From a virus: a DNA stretch of 64,000 nt. This document shows positions 1,723 to 61,830 of the stretch, piece after piece (the first letter of the stretch is position 1; each line of letters starts with the position of its first letter). The notes under the pieces are model-generated. The model had not been told where the DNA came from. It made no database searches and worked only from the letters and a program-made list of their open reading frames with translations. The stretch lies in IMG/VR virus record IMGVR_UViG_3300018080_000131, positions 1 through 64,000 of that record. One strand, given 5' to 3'. The translations under genes were made by a program, and so were the position numbers.

Positions 1723-4707
1723 ATGCAGTTTGCTGATTTTATAAAACTAACAGATAGTTTCAAGTTGTTTCTTGTTGAAATTAATGTTGGTGATGAGATA
1801 GAAGATGCTACTTGGGTACAAGATGTAACTTATACTAATTGTTGGTATACTGAAAATTATGATGTTGGTGTTCCTAATAAAGTAACTGAAGATGGAAGTG
1901 AATATACTGAAAGATTTACTCTTACAGAATTAAATAGTAATGCAAGTGGGTTTTATTATGATTTTGAAAATCAGAAATTATATCTTCATACTTCAGGAAG
2001 TGATGACCCAGGAAGCCAAACTGGTGATGATTATGATTATAAGATTGTTGCTTTTTCTTATAGGTATATTTGTAATAGTCAATTTGGAGATGGTAATGAA
2101 GTTGTATTTGCAAGAGAACAAGAGGCTTTAACAGATGGTAGTTTTGAACTTTGGGATTCTTCTACTGATTTAACTAATTATACAGAAACTACTGCTGGAA
2201 CTTCTACAGTAAATAGAGACAGTAGTGTTGTTTATGCTGGTGGATATTCTGTAAGAATAGATATAGATGGAAGTGGAAACAATGCTAGTATTTTACAAAA
2301 TATTATTTTAAAACCAAGTGGTAAGTGCAAAATAACTTTTAGATACAGGCATGATGGTGCTGGAATTACTTCAGTTTTAAGAATAAAAGATTCAGCTAGT
2401 AATGTTTATCTTGATTCTAGTGGGGATTGGCAAGCTGGAGCTACTAATATATCTTTAGCTAATTCTAATGCTGAATGGACAGAATATGAACTTGAATTTT
2501 ATGCTCATGATGATTATACTAATTACACTATAGAGTTTGAGGGGACAGATGCTAATTCTTCTAATTGGTTTGATGATGCTTCTTTGACAATATATAGAGA
2601 AGATAATTATTATATTCCTTTTCTTTATTCTGGTTCTCTTCCTTCTATTCAACAGGCTGTTGATGATTATTATAATAGTTCTGTAAGAATGGAATTTGGA
2701 ACTATTAGATTTATAAATGATGGTTGGTGGTATTCTCAGATTCAGAATTATTTATGGTATAAGAAAGATATTACTATTAGGTATGGAGCTAAGGGTTCTG
2801 ACTATGAGGATTTTGAAACTATCTTTACAGGTAAAACTAGAAAACCTATGGTTGGTGATGAGTTTGCTTCAATAGATGTTACTGATGTTAAGGCTTTAAT
2901 CTATAAAGAAATACCTGCTACTAAATATTGGATAAGCAATTATGCTAATTTAGAAGCTGGTGCAGAAGGGTTGCCTATTCCTATTGCTTATGGTGAAATA
3001 TATGGAATTATTCCAATTTGTATAGATACTACAGCATATGAATATAAGATTGCTAATCATGAAATAGAAGATATTTTAGATGTTTATAAAGATGGTACTG
3101 CTCTTACTGGTGGTGGTGTTGATTATACAGTTGATTTGGCTAATGGTGAGTTTACTCTTTCTTCTGACCCAGGAGATTCATTAATAACTTGTGATATTCA
3201 AGGGAAGAAGTGTGATATAGAAGATGGAACTTATTCAGATAATGTTGCTGATATTCTTTATGATATTCTTGTTAATTATTCAGATATTGATGCTAGTCAA
3301 ATAGACCTTGAATCATTTCTTGATTTAAAAGGTGGAAGAACTCAATCCCATCAATTGTATATTAATGTTGGAAGGTCTTGTGTTGAGTATGTTAGGCTTC
3401 TTCAGCAATCATCTCTATTTCATGTTATTCCTTTGACTAATGGAAAAATAGGAGCTTTTAGGTATGTAACAGGAACAAGTTCTTCTACTCCTAGATTTGT
3501 TGATGAAGACTATAATGAGTTTTCTATTATTTATGATACTTCCAATATTCATAATAAAATAAAGGTTAGATATAATCATAATCCTGGTGATGAGTCTTAT
3601 GCAAAAACAGTGAGAACTGATAGTGATGTTGAATATAAGTATGATGAAGTTAACACAAAGACTATTACAACAACATTGAAAGATGAGGCTGATGCTGAAA
3701 ATTTAGGTGATTTTTATCTTGATTTATTGAATGAACCACAAAGGAAGGTTAGTGTGGTTCTTCCAACAAGGATATTTAATTTAAGACCTGCTGAAAAAAT
3801 TATATTCAATAAAACAAGATATATGAAGGAAGGAACTGTTACTGTTTTTGATGAAGAACCTTATAGGATATTAGAATTAAATAAAAGTTTGGCTGATGGT
3901 AAGGTTAAGGTTATTGCTATTGAAGACCTTCAATCTGCTGGTGAAGGGTTTTGTGAGGTATGTTATACCTGTCAATCCTGTAATGTGGAGCAAGATGGCT
4001 CATGTTCTTCATGTTATACCTGTGAAAAGTGTGATGCTGGTGAGTGTGATTCTTGTCAATCTTGTTATTATTGTCAAAAGTGTGATGCTGGTGAGTGTTC
4101 AAGTTGTGAGGTTTGTGATAGTTGTGAGGAGTGTGAATCTGGTCAGTGTGGGACTTGTGAAACTTGTGATTCTTGTCAAACCTGTAATACATGCCAGGAT
4201 TGTGATTCTGGGGAATGTGCTACATGCCAAACTTGTGATAGTTGTGAGGAATGTGATAGTTGTCAATTAGGATGTTATACTGGTCAGTGTACTTCTTGTG
4301 AATCTTGTGATTCTTGTGAAGGGTGTAATACATGCCAAAATTGTGATAGTTGCCAAAAATGTTATTCTGGAGAGTGTTCCAGTTGTGAATCTTGTGATTC
4401 TTGTCAAACCTGTAATACATGCCAAAATTGTGATACAGGTGAGTGTTCCAGTTGTCAAAGTTGTGATACATGCCAGGATTGTTATTCTAATGAATGTACT
4501 TTATGTGAATCTTGTGATTCTTGTCAAACCTGTAATACATGCCAAAATTGTGATACAGGAGAATGTTCTAGTTGTCAGGCTTGTAATACCTGTCAAACCT
4601 GTGATAGTTGTGAAAAGTGTAATACTGGTCAATGTACTTCTTGTCAAACCTGTAATACATGCCAAAATTGTTATACCTGTGAGGTATGTGATATTGTCCA
4701 AGGATAA
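1723..4707 (+). CDS. large tail-tip/baseplate hub-like protein with a carbohydrate-binding-like insert and a C-terminal Cys-rich (Cxx)n domain
   Basis: 994 aa. DGSFELW...VYAGGYSVRI CBM-like segment; PIPIAYG typical of tail hub proteins; residues ~744-994 hold ~74 Cys (hand count) in CxxCxxC arrays. Confidence 0.7.
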   Translation: MQFADFIKLTDSFKLFLVEINVGDEIEDATWVQDVTYTNCWYTENYDVGVPNKVTEDGSEYTERFTLTELNSNASGFYYDFENQKLYLHTSGSDDPGSQTGDDYDYKIVAFSYRYICNSQFGDGNEVVFAREQEALTDGSFELWDSSTDLTNYTETTAGTSTVNRDSSVVYAGGYSVRIDIDGSGNNASILQNIILKPSGKCKITFRYRHDGAGITSVLRIKDSASNVYLDSSGDWQAGATNISLANSNAEWTEYELEFYAHDDYTNYTIEFEGTDANSSNWFDDASLTIYREDNYYIPFLYSGSLPSIQQAVDDYYNSSVRMEFGTIRFINDGWWYSQIQNYLWYKKDITIRYGAKGSDYEDFETIFTGKTRKPMVGDEFASIDVTDVKALIYKEIPATKYWISNYANLEAGAEGLPIPIAYGEIYGIIPICIDTTAYEYKIANHEIEDILDVYKDGTALTGGGVDYTVDLANGEFTLSSDPGDSLITCDIQGKKCDIEDGTYSDNVADILYDILVNYSDIDASQIDLESFLDLKGGRTQSHQLYINVGRSCVEYVRLLQQSSLFHVIPLTNGKIGAFRYVTGTSSSTPRFVDEDYNEFSIIYDTSNIHNKIKVRYNHNPGDESYAKTVRTDSDVEYKYDEVNTKTITTTLKDEADAENLGDFYLDLLNEPQRKVSVVLPTRIFNLRPAEKIIFNKTRYMKEGTVTVFDEEPYRILELNKSLADGKVKVIAIEDLQSAGEGFCEVCYTCQSCNVEQDGSCSSCYTCEKCDAGECDSCQSCYYCQKCDAGECSSCEVCDSCEECESGQCGTCETCDSCQTCNTCQDCDSGECATCQTCDSCEECDSCQLGCYTGQCTSCESCDSCEGCNTCQNCDSCQKCYSGECSSCESCDSCQTCNTCQNCDTGECSSCQSCDTCQDCYSNECTLCESCDSCQTCNTCQNCDTGECSSCQACNTCQTCDSCEKCNTGQCTSCQTCNTCQNCYTCEVCDIVQG

Positions 4708-50008: not shown

Positions 50009-51565
50009 ATGGAAAATTTAATAGAGAAAAAACCAAGAAATATCATACAAGCTTTTGAAGAAGAGGAGTTTTTTGGTAAGTCTTTTCCAGGTAAGAAGAA
50101 AGGAAGCTGGGATAAGTGGAAAAGCTTCTTGAAAATTGTATATGGTATCAGATTAAACAAAAGGGACAGGGAAGTTTATGAGAGATGTACTGGTAGAAGC
50201 ATTGATGATATTCCTAAAGGTGGTTTTGAAGAGTTTTATGGGATTGTAGGTAGAAGAGGTGGTAAAAGTACTATTTCTTCATTTATTGCTTCTTATGAGG
50301 CTTTATTTGGTGGTTGGGAAAAAGTATAAGCTCCTGGTGAAACAGGAAGTGTGTTTATTGTTGCTCCTGATAAAAAGCAAGCTGGAATTATTTTCAAATA
50401 TTGTAAAGCTATGATTGCTGATAATTTTAAAGATATGATTGTGAGAGATACTACAGAATTGATTAGCTTGAAAAATGGAATTGATATTGTGATAATGCCA
50501 GCTAGAATGACAGGTTTGAGAGGTTTTTCAACTATTTGTGTTATTCTTGATGAAATTGCTTTTTTGAAAACAGAGGATTATGCTAATCCAGCAGATGAGA
50601 TTATTACAGCATTAGAACCTTCTTTGAAGGCAAAAGCTAAGTTGATTGGGATTTCTACTCCTTATGGAAAATTTGGTTATTTCTATGATATGTTTAAAGA
50701 GCATTATGGAAAAAGAGGTTCTGAAATTTTAGTTTGGCAAGCTCCAACAACATATATGAATCCAAGGTATGATGTAAGTAAAATCAGAAGAGCTAAAAGA
50801 AGGGATTTGTCAAAGGCTACAGCAGAATATGAGGCTACATTTAGAGAAGATGTAAGTTCTTACATTTCAGAAGATGAGCTTTTGGGGTTAACAGAATTTG
50901 GTATAAAAGAAAGGTTACCAGAAGAGGATATGCCTTATTATGCTTTTGTTGATGTTTCTGGTGCTAGGAAAGATTCTTTTACTTTTGCAATTGCTCATGT
51001 TGAAGAGGATTTTGTAGTTTTAGATGTTATTTATGAAAAAGTTCCACCATATAATATTGAAAATCAGCAACAGATTTGTGCTGATTATTTGAAGAAATTT
51101 GGAATTAGGCATATTGTTGGTGATAAATATGGTGGTGATTTTCCAGTTCAAGGATTTAAGAGGAAGGAGATTCAGTATTATCAAAGCCAAAATCCTAAGT
51201 CTGATTTATATCTTGATTTTCAGATAGTTTGTAATTTGAAAAAAGTGAAATTGCTTGATAATGAAAGAATGAGAAAGCAGTTTATTATTTTAGAAAGGAA
51301 AACAGATGCTTCAGGAAAAGATTCTGTAATTAAGCCAAGAAATACTCATGATGATGTTGCTAATTCAGTTGCAGGAGCAGTAGTAATGGCATATAGGAGT
51401 ATTTCAACTAGACCTTCTGAGGAAGAGCTAAAAAGCAGGATGTTTAGGAAAGTGCATAAAAGAGGGTTGAATTATGATGAGGAATGGGCTAATATTTTGA
51501 AAGAAGCTGAAAAAGAAATGGAAGAGCAGTTAGCTAGAAGAAAAAAAGGAGAAGGAGAAAAATGA
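50009..51565 (+). CDS. terL: terminase large subunit, interrupted by a single in-frame TAA at 50327-50329
   Basis: GRRGGKS Walker A in the first segment; VAPDKKQA, RG, VILDEIAF, ISTPYG, EYEATF, FVDVSG, HDDVAN in the second. Both segments share one frame. Confidence 0.88.
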
Positions 51566-55323: not shown

Positions 55324-55483
55324 AAGAATATTTTAATTGTCTTAAATGTGGTTCTTTGTGTGAGGTTGTTTTCAAGGATAATGATGAGTATTCTGGAGAA
55401 GAGGTTTGTGAGAAATGTGGTGCTTCTCATGAGGTGTATTTAGTAACAGAATTGAAAGTATCTTTAAATGAAGAATAGATAAT

Positions 55484-55518
55484 TGTCAGAAATGAGGCTT
55501 CTCACTTCTGACAAAAAA
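55484..55518. terminator. intergenic hairpin, probable terminator
   Basis: TGTCAGAAATGAG-GCTT-CTCACTTCTGACA followed by an A-run. Confidence 0.6.
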
Positions 55519-55567
55519 GGTGATAAGTTATGGAAAAAATTGAGAAAATGAAAAAAACTTTGCTGTA

Positions 55568-55653
55568 TAAAATGCTTGTTTATAACAAGTTAAAAGAAAA
55601 AAGAAAAAAATTTCAAAAAAAGACTTGACAAATGATAAAAAATGTTTTATATT
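55568..55653 (+). promoter_or_regulatory. early-type promoter driving the ncRNA operon
   Basis: TAA-N19-TTA 55568-55592; TTGACA 55625; TATATT 55648. Confidence 0.88.
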
Positions 55654-55658
55654 GTGAT

Positions 55659-55695
55659 TGTCTTCAGTTAGAAGATGTAAGTTCTTTAACAATTT
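55659..55695 (+). promoter_or_regulatory. rrn-type antitermination leader (boxB-like hairpin + boxA)
   Basis: Hairpin TGTCTTC-AGTTA-GAAGATG then GTTCTTTAACAATTT; compare E. coli rrn boxA TGCTCTTTAACA. Confidence 0.7.
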
Positions 55696-55700
55696 AATTG

Positions 55701-55957
55701 ATTGTCTCTTCTGAGAGAAGGGAGTTAATCCACAGTTCATCTTGAGCTTGGGAAAAGTTCCTAGAGGATGGAAGATTCAACTAATCTGAGGATAGGTGTT
55801 GAAAACCTAGATGATTCACCTAGTTAGGAGTAGCTAACCTAATGATGATGGTGGTTGGGGTGTCCCCCCTGACAGTTGACCCTAGTTCTCCAAGGGTGTT
55901 CTTGTTACCAAGTGAGCTTAGTTGCAAGAGCTTGGTACTTCTCCCAGAAGAGACAAT
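55701..55957 (+). ncRNA. structured ncRNA module 1
   Basis: 20-bp closing helix (55701-55720 with 55938-55957, one mismatch); several internal hairpins; higher GC than flanks. Confidence 0.75.
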
Positions 55958-55963
55958 AAAATG

Positions 55964-56175
55964 TTTTCCTTCTAATGGGAAGGTCAACTAGACAGAAGAC
56001 TTACTCATTAGTGAAACAGGGAATTGATTAATGCTTTTAAGTAGGCATGGTCAGCATCTGAGTAGAACCATCTGTGGTAAGCAGAAAGACAAAAGGCTCT
56101 GTTGGCTGTCAGTTCTTTGTGAAGTATTAATGCTTCTTGCAGGTGGAATTCCTGCTCTTCCCATTAGAAGGAAAA
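55964..56175 (+). ncRNA. structured ncRNA module 2 (tRNA-like, expanded anticodon arm)
   Basis: Perfect 19-bp closing helix; T arm GCAGG-TGGAATT-CCTGC; variable-arm hairpin GAAGTA-TTAA-TGCTTC. Confidence 0.78.
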
Positions 56176-56191
56176 ATAAAAAATTCTCCTT

Positions 56192-56401
56192 AGAGTTTTT
56201 TCTGGGAGAATAGCTTAAGAAAGCTGTAATGCATTTAATAGGATGCTGGTGAGATGAGATGGTTATACTAGTTGCCATTTTATCTTCTCAATTCCAGCAC
56301 TATGACTATAGCATAGTTAGCATAATAACAGTTTAAAGCTCTGGTTCTTTGAATCAGGTAAATGTTGGTTATGAAATCCAACTTCTCCCAGAAAAAACTT
56401 T
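56192..56401 (+). ncRNA. structured ncRNA module 3 (tRNA-like, ~110 nt D-loop insertion)
   Basis: 19-bp closing helix; GGGAGAA-TA-GCTT...AAGC-T-CTGGT-TCTTTGA-ATCAG...GTTGG-TTATGAAAT-CCAAC-TTCTCCC. Confidence 0.78.
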
Positions 56402-56407
56402 GGTGAG

Positions 56408-56502
56408 TAAAGTATTGTATAACAATAACTTAGAAAAAAACTTTAAAAAAAAAATGAAAAAAAAGACTTGACAAACACATAAAAATGTTTTATATTATAA
56501 GT
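56408..56502 (+). promoter_or_regulatory. early promoter cassette
   Basis: TAA-N19-TTA 56408-56432; TTGACA 56468; TATATT 56491. Confidence 0.9.
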
Positions 56503-60279: not shown

Positions 60280-61830
60280 ATGGATTTTAAAGGATTTTTC
60301 TATAGGGTTTGGTATGATTGGTTGAATCTAAGAAAGAATGTATTCTGTCCTTTGGCAAAAAAGAATAATTGGAAATGGTTATTTAATGTTTGTGATTGTC
60401 AGAGATATGAACCTAAATATATTTGGGTATGGGTATGTTCTGATTGTGGTAAGTTGACAGAAGAAGGAAAACCAAAAGCTATTTATAAAAAATTCCTTAA
60501 AGGAACAGAACCTACAGAGAAGTGTACTTGTGCAATTATACCACCAATAGAAAAAGTAGAAAGAACCATTTGTCTTGTTAGTGGATTGCTTGCTAGAGGT
60601 TTCTGTTTACATACAGAAGTGAGAGAATACAACAAAGGAACAGAACCTACAGAGAAGTGTGATGTTCATGATTTTGTAAAATCTAAAAGAGATGAAGAAA
60701 AATGTGCAGGTATGCTAGGTTTCTTTTTAAGCTTTATTAGACAAGCTTGGAATCCTAAAGACCAGATGAAAACTGTTGAGGAACACCAAGCTGTTTTTTC
60801 TGAGTTAGCAAGAAGAGGATATAAGTATGTTGATTGGTTTATGTGGTTATGTGATAATAAATATGAACATAAATATTTAAATGATAAGACTCCTTTTTAT
60901 CAATATAAAAATGCTGTTGGGAAAAGGATGTTTGATTTAATGAAATGGGATGAAAGATTTTGGGAATTGTTTGAGATATTTATTAAACTACATAAACAGT
61001 TTAATCTTGTCCCTGTTCCTCAGATTCTTATGGCTAGATATTGTGATTATCCTTTTGAGAATAATAGAAATAAAGTTAGAGGTTTTTGGGATAAAACAGC
61101 TAGAGATGTTCAGTATGATTTGATTGATAAAACTGTTAGCATTGTTAAAGGAATTGTTGGAAAAGATTTTCTTGTGAAGTTTGTAAATGAACCTCAGCAT
61201 GGTGGAAGTGATAGTAGGTTTCATACAATTGCTGAATGGCATCATGATATGTTTTGGCATGGTCTTTGCAAACATTTTGATACTGGAGAAGAGGCTTTGA
61301 GTCATTTGGTCATTGATAATTCTGGTTCTGAAGCTGGTCAATTGTTGTTGGTTTGGCATCATGGTGGTGAAGATGGTCAAAGGTGTCCTAAATGTGGTAA
61401 GCTTTTTAAAGATATATTTGGCTACAGTACTGAAGAATGGATGGGTAGGCTTAGAATTGGAGAACAGCACACTGTTAGTATTGTGGATGATTTGGAAGCT
61501 GGTCATAATTCTTTAAGAAAGTTTTTTGGTTCTGCTAATAGAAAGGTGAGATGGCATGAAGATGGTGGTGCAAGTGATTGTTCTAAAGCTCATGGTTACC
61601 ATAATGGATATTGTTTTGCTAATGCTGAAGAGTATGGTAAAATGTGTGCTAAGGTATGGAAGATGCAAGCTGAAAGAGGAAGAGGAAAGATATGTTATAT
61701 TTGTATATTTCCTGCTGAAACATTATTTTATATTGATAAGGTTTTCCTAGAAACTTACAGAGTAGATACTATTAATTGGGACAGATTTGATGAAATGGTG
61801 AAAATGCATAAAAAATATCTTGGAGATTGA
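60280..61830 (+). CDS. protein with two GTEPTEKC Zn-binding-like repeats and a glycoside-hydrolase-like (TIM barrel) domain
   Basis: 27-nt exact repeat at 60499 and 60634; ICLVSGLLA..C...GTEPTEKCDVH; FVNEP as in clan GH-A acid/base motifs. Confidence 0.5.
   Translation: MDFKGFFYRVWYDWLNLRKNVFCPLAKKNNWKWLFNVCDCQRYEPKYIWVWVCSDCGKLTEEGKPKAIYKKFLKGTEPTEKCTCAIIPPIEKVERTICLVSGLLARGFCLHTEVREYNKGTEPTEKCDVHDFVKSKRDEEKCAGMLGFFLSFIRQAWNPKDQMKTVEEHQAVFSELARRGYKYVDWFMWLCDNKYEHKYLNDKTPFYQYKNAVGKRMFDLMKWDERFWELFEIFIKLHKQFNLVPVPQILMARYCDYPFENNRNKVRGFWDKTARDVQYDLIDKTVSIVKGIVGKDFLVKFVNEPQHGGSDSRFHTIAEWHHDMFWHGLCKHFDTGEEALSHLVIDNSGSEAGQLLLVWHHGGEDGQRCPKCGKLFKDIFGYSTEEWMGRLRIGEQHTVSIVDDLEAGHNSLRKFFGSANRKVRWHEDGGASDCSKAHGYHNGYCFANAEEYGKMCAKVWKMQAERGRGKICYICIFPAETLFYIDKVFLETYRVDTINWDRFDEMVKMHKKYLGD

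Follow-up and report, generated by a model that had tools for sequence, protein, structure and literature searches.

The DNA analysed here (the window) comprises the first 64 kb, positions 1 to 64,000, of the 101,074-bp IMG/VR virus record IMGVR_UViG_3300018080_000131, which is about 65% complete; the genome-wide negative results given below cover this 101-kb record. The sole sequencing run that contains the stretch is a DNA run of a sediment metagenome, probably the source sample, and the phage it belongs to is uncultured, with no close cultured relative found. The phage has a GC content of 31% and a GC skew of about +0.45, carries essentially all of its genes on the plus strand and encodes T4-type capsid, portal and prohead protease genes as well as PolA, RNR and RecA. 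A sliding scan of the whole genome places its longest non-coding tract (about 55480-56485) first for structure, with the most negative GC-corrected fold energies. Within this tract lies the element in question, here called module 2, at 55964-56175, coordinates that an initial annotation of the window had given correctly. Module 2 is a real, strand-specific structured RNA behind a promoter, and its setting is as follows:

55625-55653, plus strand: promoter of the RNA operon, with TTGACA, 17 nt, TATATT and an upstream A-tract (11/12 consensus matches)
55660-55696, plus strand: leader, with a small hairpin at 55660-55676 (in the operon fold) and then the boxA-like GTTCTTTAACAATTTA at 55681-55696
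55698-55960, plus strand: module 1, a multi-branched RNA with a closing helix of 23 nt that is 91% complementary
55964-56175, plus strand: module 2
56194-56399, plus strand: module 3, a tRNA-Lys(UUU)-type cloverleaf (56204-56390) within a long closing helix
56468-56496, plus strand: next promoter of the same class, which drives downstream genes and marks the end of the RNA operon

Folded as a whole, the 756-nt RNA from 55655 to 56410 reaches -257 kcal/mol (z = -8.7) and forms the three modules, each with a long closing helix made from an inverted repeat (23 nt for module 1 as listed, 19 nt and 100% complementary for module 2, 17 nt and 100% plus a G-U extension for module 3). The promoter in front of them belongs to a set of seven strong and nearly identical promoters that the genome contains (9769, 39355, 55624, 56467, 57207, 61904 and 62879), which share an A-tract and (G/C)ACTTGACAAA followed by TATATT. 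Downstream of six of the seven lie ATAAGTA and a gene, and only the promoter at 55624 leads into RNA structure. The boxA-like element is located 27 nt past the -10 hexamer, occurs a single time in the 101-kb genome (both strands) and, in a direct alignment with the E. coli rrnB leader, agrees with its boxA region in 15 of 16 positions. Since boxA has a known role in rrn operons, the leader may, by analogy, provide Nus-type antitermination for an untranslated transcript. We picture a three-unit operon (about 55655-56400, plus strand) that would be transcribed from a strong sigma-70-type promoter and that the rrn-style boxA leader would probably protect from Rho. Each unit would be bracketed by a helix of 17-23 bp formed from its own flanks, and this helix could serve in processing and protection, in the manner of the stalks that RNase III cuts in rRNA operons. 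As a separate observation, the 3' strand of the module 1 closing helix (55939-55959) and the 5' strand of the module 3 closing helix (56190-56210) show 81% complementarity, and an alternative long-range helix around the whole of module 2 is therefore possible.

Module 2 itself folds with z = -6.18 compared to 200 shuffles. Its plus strand reaches -80.1 kcal/mol versus -62.8 kcal/mol for the minus strand, a gap of 17 kcal/mol, and forms 12 versus 3 G-U pairs. This stability of the plus strand and its excess of G-U pairs argue for an RNA and against an element that acts at the level of DNA, such as a replication origin, a set of cruciforms or three insertions that resemble miniature inverted-repeat transposable elements (MITEs) with terminal inverted repeats. 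The three pairs of 17-23-bp inverted repeats, the AT-rich flanks and the terminase gene about 4 kb upstream of the RNA tract would suit such an element. However, in all three modules the plus strand folds more stably and is richer in G-U pairs, the internal helices are of the RNA type, no module is a copy of another, the tract comes with a promoter and a boxA of its own, and module 3 is a tRNA-type cloverleaf. From our point of view, a DNA-level element has only a very slim chance of being the correct explanation.

The fold of module 2 consists of the following parts:

55964-55982, plus strand: 5' strand of the closing helix, with the acceptor-like top GGGAAGG at 55977-55983
55983-56015, plus strand: 5' junction strand, with an optional mini-hairpin GUC-AACUA-GAC at 55983-55993 (probability 0.69); a canonical D arm is absent
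56016-56120, plus strand: long arm at the position of the anticodon arm, a branched domain of 105 nt
56016-56028 with 56108-56120, plus strand: 13-bp helix of the long arm (probability about 1), which encloses 79 nt
56031-56048, plus strand: first hairpin of the long arm, with the loop UUAAGU
56049-56056 with 56100-56107, plus strand: inner helix of the long arm in the predicted fold
56070-56084, plus strand: second hairpin of the long arm, with the loop GGUAA
56121-56136, plus strand: variable-arm-like hairpin, with GAAGUA, the loop UUAA and UGCUUC (probability about 0.73; present in the centroid fold)
56139-56155, plus strand: T-arm-like hairpin GCAGG-UGGAAUU-CCUGC, with 5 bp and a 7-nt loop (pairing probability 1.00)
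56156-56175, plus strand: 3' strand of the closing helix, with UCUUCCC (56156-56162), then A56163 and then a 12-nt extension

The closing helix (55964-55982 with 56157-56175) is a perfect 19-bp Watson-Crick inverted repeat with a pairing probability of about 1, and the T-arm-like hairpin directly abuts it. The initial annotation had described module 2 as a tRNA-like shell whose anticodon loop has given way to a large domain, and much of this shell is recovered: the T arm and the variable-arm hairpin form as proposed, and the two strands of the postulated 7-bp acceptor do pair with each other, albeit merely as the top of the unbroken 19-bp helix. The short stretch that had been read as an unpaired D region ending in GAC can form the 3-bp mini-hairpin, and the 5' junction of 32 nt holds at most this one. 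The long helix ACAGAAGACU/AGUUCUUUGU, which was supposed to enclose about 110 nt, did not withstand folding, in contrast to the T arm. It contains an A.C mismatch, has an ensemble probability of 0.00 and, when forced, yields -71.5 kcal/mol compared to a minimum free energy of -80.1 kcal/mol; its 3' strand instead pairs with 56016-56028 to form the 13-bp helix listed above, which encloses the shorter interior. We also note that the GGAAUU motif occurs again in module 2 at 56020-56025, and that an alternative pairing of 56017-56025 with 56147-56155 could displace the T hairpin.

Module 2 is tRNA-like in its topology and in part of its T arm, while a D arm and an anticodon are absent; lacking an anticodon, the RNA is unable to decode. 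Within the shell, i.e., the closing helix, the variable hairpin and the T hairpin, the G53-C61 pair, U54, R57, A58 and the A that follows CCC are all compatible with tRNA, and in the predicted fold a 7-bp acceptor sits on a 5-bp T stem with a 7-nt loop, though the helix continues to 19 bp. With the class II tRNAs (Leu, Ser and bacterial Tyr), module 2 shares this stack of 7 + 5 bp, a 6-bp variable hairpin 2 nt before the T arm, A73 and G53-C61. It differs from them in having neither a D arm nor an anticodon loop, in carrying G55 and G56 instead of psi55 and C56, and in not being recognised by ARAGORN or Rfam. Default ARAGORN made no call for a tRNA or a transfer-messenger RNA (tmRNA) in module 2, and no Rfam family matched at its gathering score; at E <= 10, there was still no match to a tRNA, tmRNA, group I intron, Y RNA, GOLLD, ROOL or 6S family. 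ARAGORN at relaxed thresholds, which had been suggested as a check, returns 1.7 'tRNAs' per kb genome-wide and is therefore uninformative, and the 'permuted' tmRNA (tmRNAp) calls that it makes lie at unrelated coordinates.

As the topology resembles that of a type II tRNA with an insert in the anticodon arm, one could imagine a tRNA gene that is interrupted by an intron or a mobile insert, removal of which would give a working class II tRNA. The initial annotation had likewise considered an intron derivative. However, default ARAGORN found no tRNA restored in any of 13,481 single-deletion variants, and the D arm is absent. Double deletions passed in 6 out of 1.47 million cases, all with mismatched D and anticodon stems, and these are fewer than the 23 to 209 passes obtained when the interior of module 2 was shuffled (two genomic controls gave none). 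The Rfam search revealed no group I intron core, and neither EndA, RtcB, Rnl1 nor Rnl2 was found in the 101 kb, although the search for Rnl1 matched in none of its control genomes and carries little weight. An interrupted tRNA gene is hence scarcely credible to us, and the idea of an intron derivative was abandoned. Since shuffled interiors pass more often than the native one, it can further be concluded that the shell carries the whole tRNA signal and the interior none.

The other proposal of the initial annotation was a highly reduced tmRNA. Such a reduced or two-domain tmRNA-like RNA would be charged and would enter stalled ribosomes, and module 2 indeed resembles the tRNA-like domain of tmRNA in its acceptor plus T arm, in the large domain that replaces the anticodon arm and in its reduced D region ending in GAC. 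The differences are nevertheless considerable. Position 3 forms a G3-C70 instead of a G3-U70 pair, the T loop departs from the T-psi-C type, a tag frame with a hydrophobic end is missing, base pairing in the 19-bp helix locks both ends of the RNA, and no tmRNA model of default ARAGORN or of Rfam (E <= 10) matches. The annotation itself had already remarked that a G3-U70 pair, an encoded CCA and a clear tag reading frame are missing, and in all three respects it was right. The probability that module 2 is a tmRNA appears negligible to us. A CCA-adding enzyme was not found in the 101 kb either. A retron-type RNA was considered as well and rejected, as there is no reverse transcriptase in the 101 kb.

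How much tRNA character the shell holds can be gauged from a graft that combines it with genuine D and anticodon arms, taken from the tRNA-Thr of the phage. Default ARAGORN accepted 1 of 60 junction variants with the shell of module 2, 29 of 50 with that of module 3 and none of 19,726 random shells. Module 3, which lies 30 nt downstream of module 2 and has the same terminal-helix design, becomes a default ARAGORN tRNA-Lys(UUU) when its D loop is shortened by about 111-114 nt; 250 random genomic segments of 226 nt, treated likewise (about 14,000 variants per segment), did not give a single match. Its cloverleaf features U8 and A9, a D stem of 4 bp, C33 instead of U33 in the anticodon arm and a T loop of 9 nt, and the structured insert of about 111 nt (roughly 56220-56330) resides in the D loop. 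Module 3 is thus demonstrably a cloverleaf of the tRNA-Lys(UUU) type that carries an insert in its D loop, and removal of an insert restores a cloverleaf in module 3, not in module 2. The T stems of the two modules differ by two compensatory pairs (GCAGG/CCUGC versus GUUGG/CCAAC), and their inserts open with a similar stretch of 21 nt, UAAUGC.UUUAA.UAGG.AUG, at 56029-56049 and 56227-56245 (local score 23; null 16.1 +/- 2.3). The similar stretch hints that modules 2 and 3 may have arisen by duplication. As an observation in its own right, AAUUCCA at 56290-56296 in the module 3 insert is the exact complement of the module 2 T loop UGGAAUU (56144-56150); by our own estimate, the chance of such a complement within 750 nt is about 0.05.

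The best explanation, in which we place about even confidence, is that module 2 represents a tRNA-derived scaffold RNA in the middle of a three-unit stable-RNA operon. A tRNA origin is supported by the tRNA-Lys(UUU)-type cloverleaf of the neighbouring module 3 and by the recurrence of the same T arm in tRNA-like elements of other phages, which are described below. In such a scaffold, the top of the closing helix would stack on the T-arm-like hairpin, beside the long variable-arm-like hairpin. The D arm would be missing, and the 105-nt branched domain would replace the anticodon arm and be kept rather than spliced out. Owing to its tRNA shell, such an RNA could be processed like a tRNA, be stable, or be recognised by host or defence proteins that bind tRNA, and the inserted domain would carry the specific function. 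The notion of a tRNA mimic put forward in the initial annotation finds support in the shell (closing helix, long variable hairpin and T-arm-like hairpin) and not in the interior.

A comparable architecture is found in RNAC of phage T4 (species 1 RNA, rnaC; NC_000866 70908-71046). RNAC is a stable phage RNA with an acceptor-type helix, in which one long arm replaces the D and anticodon arms, a hairpin occupies the variable position and a 5-bp/7-nt T arm is stacked on the acceptor. The context is similar in that the phage studied here, too, has T4-type capsid and portal genes. In contrast to module 2 with its UGGAAUU loop, RNAC has the canonical loop UUCGAAU, lies within a tRNA cluster and not in a boxA-led operon, and measures 139 nt without a long leader-trailer helix, compared to about 187-212 nt for module 2. 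RNAC homologues from four phage genera display compensatory changes in the T stem and the acceptor. The best match of the RNAC covariance model (3-kb stretch, both strands) was at 56074-56165 with 5.6 bits and an E value of 0.73, and spans the variable hairpin, the T arm and the 3' acceptor strand of module 2. Module 2 shares the architecture of RNAC and is not a detectable member of the RNAC family. The role of RNAC itself is still listed as unknown in reviews and in an omics study from 2022 (PMC3014915, PMC9697503). Two further observations concern RNAC only: a diverged and unannotated homologue is present in the Klebsiella phage KaAlpha (L166:224-371), between tRNA-Trp and tRNA-Gly, and the RNAC locus of another record is annotated as tRNA-Lys.

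No homologue of the operon was found by blastn against phage records, via the neighbouring 161-aa protein or the nuclease, by synteny with the large terminase (TerL) or by pattern scans. The best TerL relative among 5.8 billion proteins is 64% identical, and in three IMG/VR relatives of TerL (39-48% identical) the RNA, a comparable non-coding tract and an insert-bearing tRNA are all absent. Searches with the combined T arm and acceptor pattern of module 2 were empty or irrelevant in viral, metagenome and genome collections; the promoter pattern retrieved unrelated phages only, the helix-top patterns of modules 1 and 3 gave random coding matches, and the pattern from the anticodon to the T arm of module 3 had one unrelated match in metagenomes. 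The exact 17-nt T arm is present at 23 loci in IMG/VR, most of which lie in coding sequence. In bacterial genomes, all four inspected matches of the 17-mer with a long abutting helix were located inside long open reading frames and are coding. In several other phages, the hairpin (G/C)CAGG-UGGAAUU-CCUG(C/G) abuts closing helices of varying sequence:

Record L171, 10265-10388: T arm abutting an 11-bp closing helix, in a multi-armed fold of 124 nt (z = -2.75)
Record L188, 5756-5841: T arm abutting an 8-bp Watson-Crick helix, in an element of 86 nt that starts 1 nt after a tRNA-Ala
Record L311, 1102-1181: element of 80 nt in which the outer T-stem pair is C-G instead of G-C
Record L170, 13636-13715: element of 80 nt from AT-rich phages, also present in L173, L179, L180, L189 and L190

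These elements of 80-124 nt stem from uncultured phages with GC contents of 0.30 to 0.57, and none of them received an ARAGORN or Rfam call. As the UGGAAUU hairpin was the search pattern, its conservation across the loci is given by construction. Abutting helices of 8-11 bp are expected by chance in about 0.001-0.003 of the matches according to our own estimate, and the cases with 7 bp do not reach significance by themselves. L189 does not retain the 5' strand of the L170 group, and the L179 row of one alignment, which had wrong coordinates, was disregarded. The inner hairpins of L170 (GAGU-GAAUAAGUA-GCUC) and L311 (CGGU-AAAUAAGA-ACCG) carry an AAUAAG-type loop on covarying stems, and the first hairpin in the long arm of module 2, UUAAGUAGG, has the loop UUAAGU followed by AGG (56037-56045), a comparison that involves few sequences. 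A side observation was made in L189, where 118 nt at 3852-3969 match the Rfam tRNA model at 50 bits and resemble a tRNA enlarged by about 45 inserted nt; the conserved block with the UGGAAUU hairpin starts 2 nt after this stretch.

On the basis of sequence, these recurrences suggest that there may be an undescribed family of tRNA-like phage RNAs that share a UGGAAUU loop, of which module 2 would be an enlarged member. One could speculate further that the family consists of tRNA mimics whose defining feature is an acceptor-type helix bearing a UGGAAUU T loop, with smaller members beside tRNA genes in unrelated phages. Module 2 would then be an anticodon-less look-alike, perhaps a decoy or inhibitor for tRNA-targeting host defences or a substrate of anticodon-blind enzymes, and would be delivered early in infection, along with a look-alike of tRNA-Lys(UUU), from an operon that is antiterminated in the style of rRNA operons. 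We consider this full scenario unlikely. If it were true, candidate enzymes would be RNase P, RNase Z, a CCA-adding enzyme, LeuRS and SerRS, the latter two being suggested by A73 and the long variable arm of module 2.

Tandem stem-closed RNAs with tRNA-like parts also bring Y RNAs to mind, i.e., partners of a Ro60-type protein. YrlA-type Y RNAs are modular, with a long end helix and a part that mimics tRNA (RF02553; PMC4201824), and they sometimes occur in tandem and are found in phages. In YrlA, however, the end helix takes the place of the anticodon stem and a loop closes the acceptor, and the RNA comes with a GNCGAA motif and a neighbouring Ro60 gene, neither of which was found here. Specifically, no TROVE domain is encoded in the 101 kb of the incomplete record or in five records with the same T arm, the motifs GNCGAA, ACAGCAA and ACAGC are missing, YrlA (RF02553) did not match at E <= 10, and the nearest unassigned large protein (60280-61830) resembles a GH5-type barrel. 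The chance that module 2 is a Y-RNA-like RNA is slim.

More weight has to be given to the possibility that module 2 is a structured non-coding phage RNA unrelated to tRNA, with a generic hairpin of the T-loop type and a merely coincidental likeness, an alternative that we regard as doubtful but possible. It would account for the missing tRNA signal of the interior, for the failure of the Rfam tRNA model to match even at E <= 10, for the non-canonical loop positions 55-56 and for the marginal performance of the shell in ARAGORN, and it would agree with module 1 of the same operon not being tRNA-like. Set against it are the statistically supported tRNA-Lys-type cloverleaf of module 3 nearby, with the same terminal-helix design; the 12-bp stack of helix and hairpin, G53-C61, U54, A58 and the A after CCC, all of which suit a tRNA; and the 17-nt hairpin that abuts acceptor-like helices beside tRNA genes in other phages.

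Several observations weigh against a tRNA-derived scaffold more generally. The closing helix has no discontinuity at 7 bp, and a free acceptor end of module 2 is therefore an assumption. Positions 54, 57 and 58 of the T loop UGGAAUU conform to tRNA, but 55-56 are GG and not the usual U and C, which excludes canonical contacts between D loop and T loop as well as TruB-type recognition. The shell was marginal in the graft test compared to that of module 3. Hairpins that adjoin a closing helix are common in multi-branch RNAs. Module 1 is not detectably tRNA-like, with no ARAGORN match among 23,556 single or 770,040 double deletions. As the operon has no homologue among the sequences searched, covariation backs none of the helices of module 2. 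The expression of the RNA, its ends and its processing are predictions, and a function as decoy or scaffold is likewise conjectural. Lastly, an open reading frame of 60 codons (56031-56213) crosses the helices of module 2. Protein coding by this frame was rejected, as it runs through the helices and as its codon score of -0.02 is intermediate between those of genes (0.44) and of spurious frames (-0.30).

The proteins that neighbour the RNA operon give no functional hint. Among them, the 516-aa protein encoded at 60280-61830 has no Pfam or PHROG match and is nearest to GH5-type glycoside hydrolases according to language-model features and an ESM Atlas structure model (TM-scores of about 0.5), so that its product looks like a GH5-type barrel, as far as models can tell. 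The large terminase shows up as two adjoining open reading frames (50009-50329 and 50351-51565; 106 and 404 aa), and its nearest relatives are single proteins of 500-635 aa.

Overall, the value of the present locus is limited in that it is a singleton from an uncultured phage, without covariation. It nevertheless adds to the stable phage RNAs with tRNA-like shells, which have been known since T4 RNAC and none of which has an assigned function. The locus would represent an extreme form of this design, with three stem-closed units in one operon, one of them still recognisable as tRNA-Lys(UUU), and with the strong promoter, boxA and flanking stalks as design elements that resemble those of rRNA operons. 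It would also be a natural counterpart of the engineered 'tRNA scaffold' of Ponchon and Dardel, in which a structured RNA is reportedly grafted into the anticodon arm and the shell is said to provide processing and nuclease resistance; the engineered version differs in being man-made and in retaining a complete D arm and a canonical T loop. In this context, tRNA-Lys is a known target of antiviral nucleases, which phage tRNAs can neutralise (PMC11464382, PMC12409363). A tRNA-shaped decoy or scaffold that is produced alongside a tRNA-Lys(UUU) look-alike would therefore bear on the conflict between the phage and the defences of its host.

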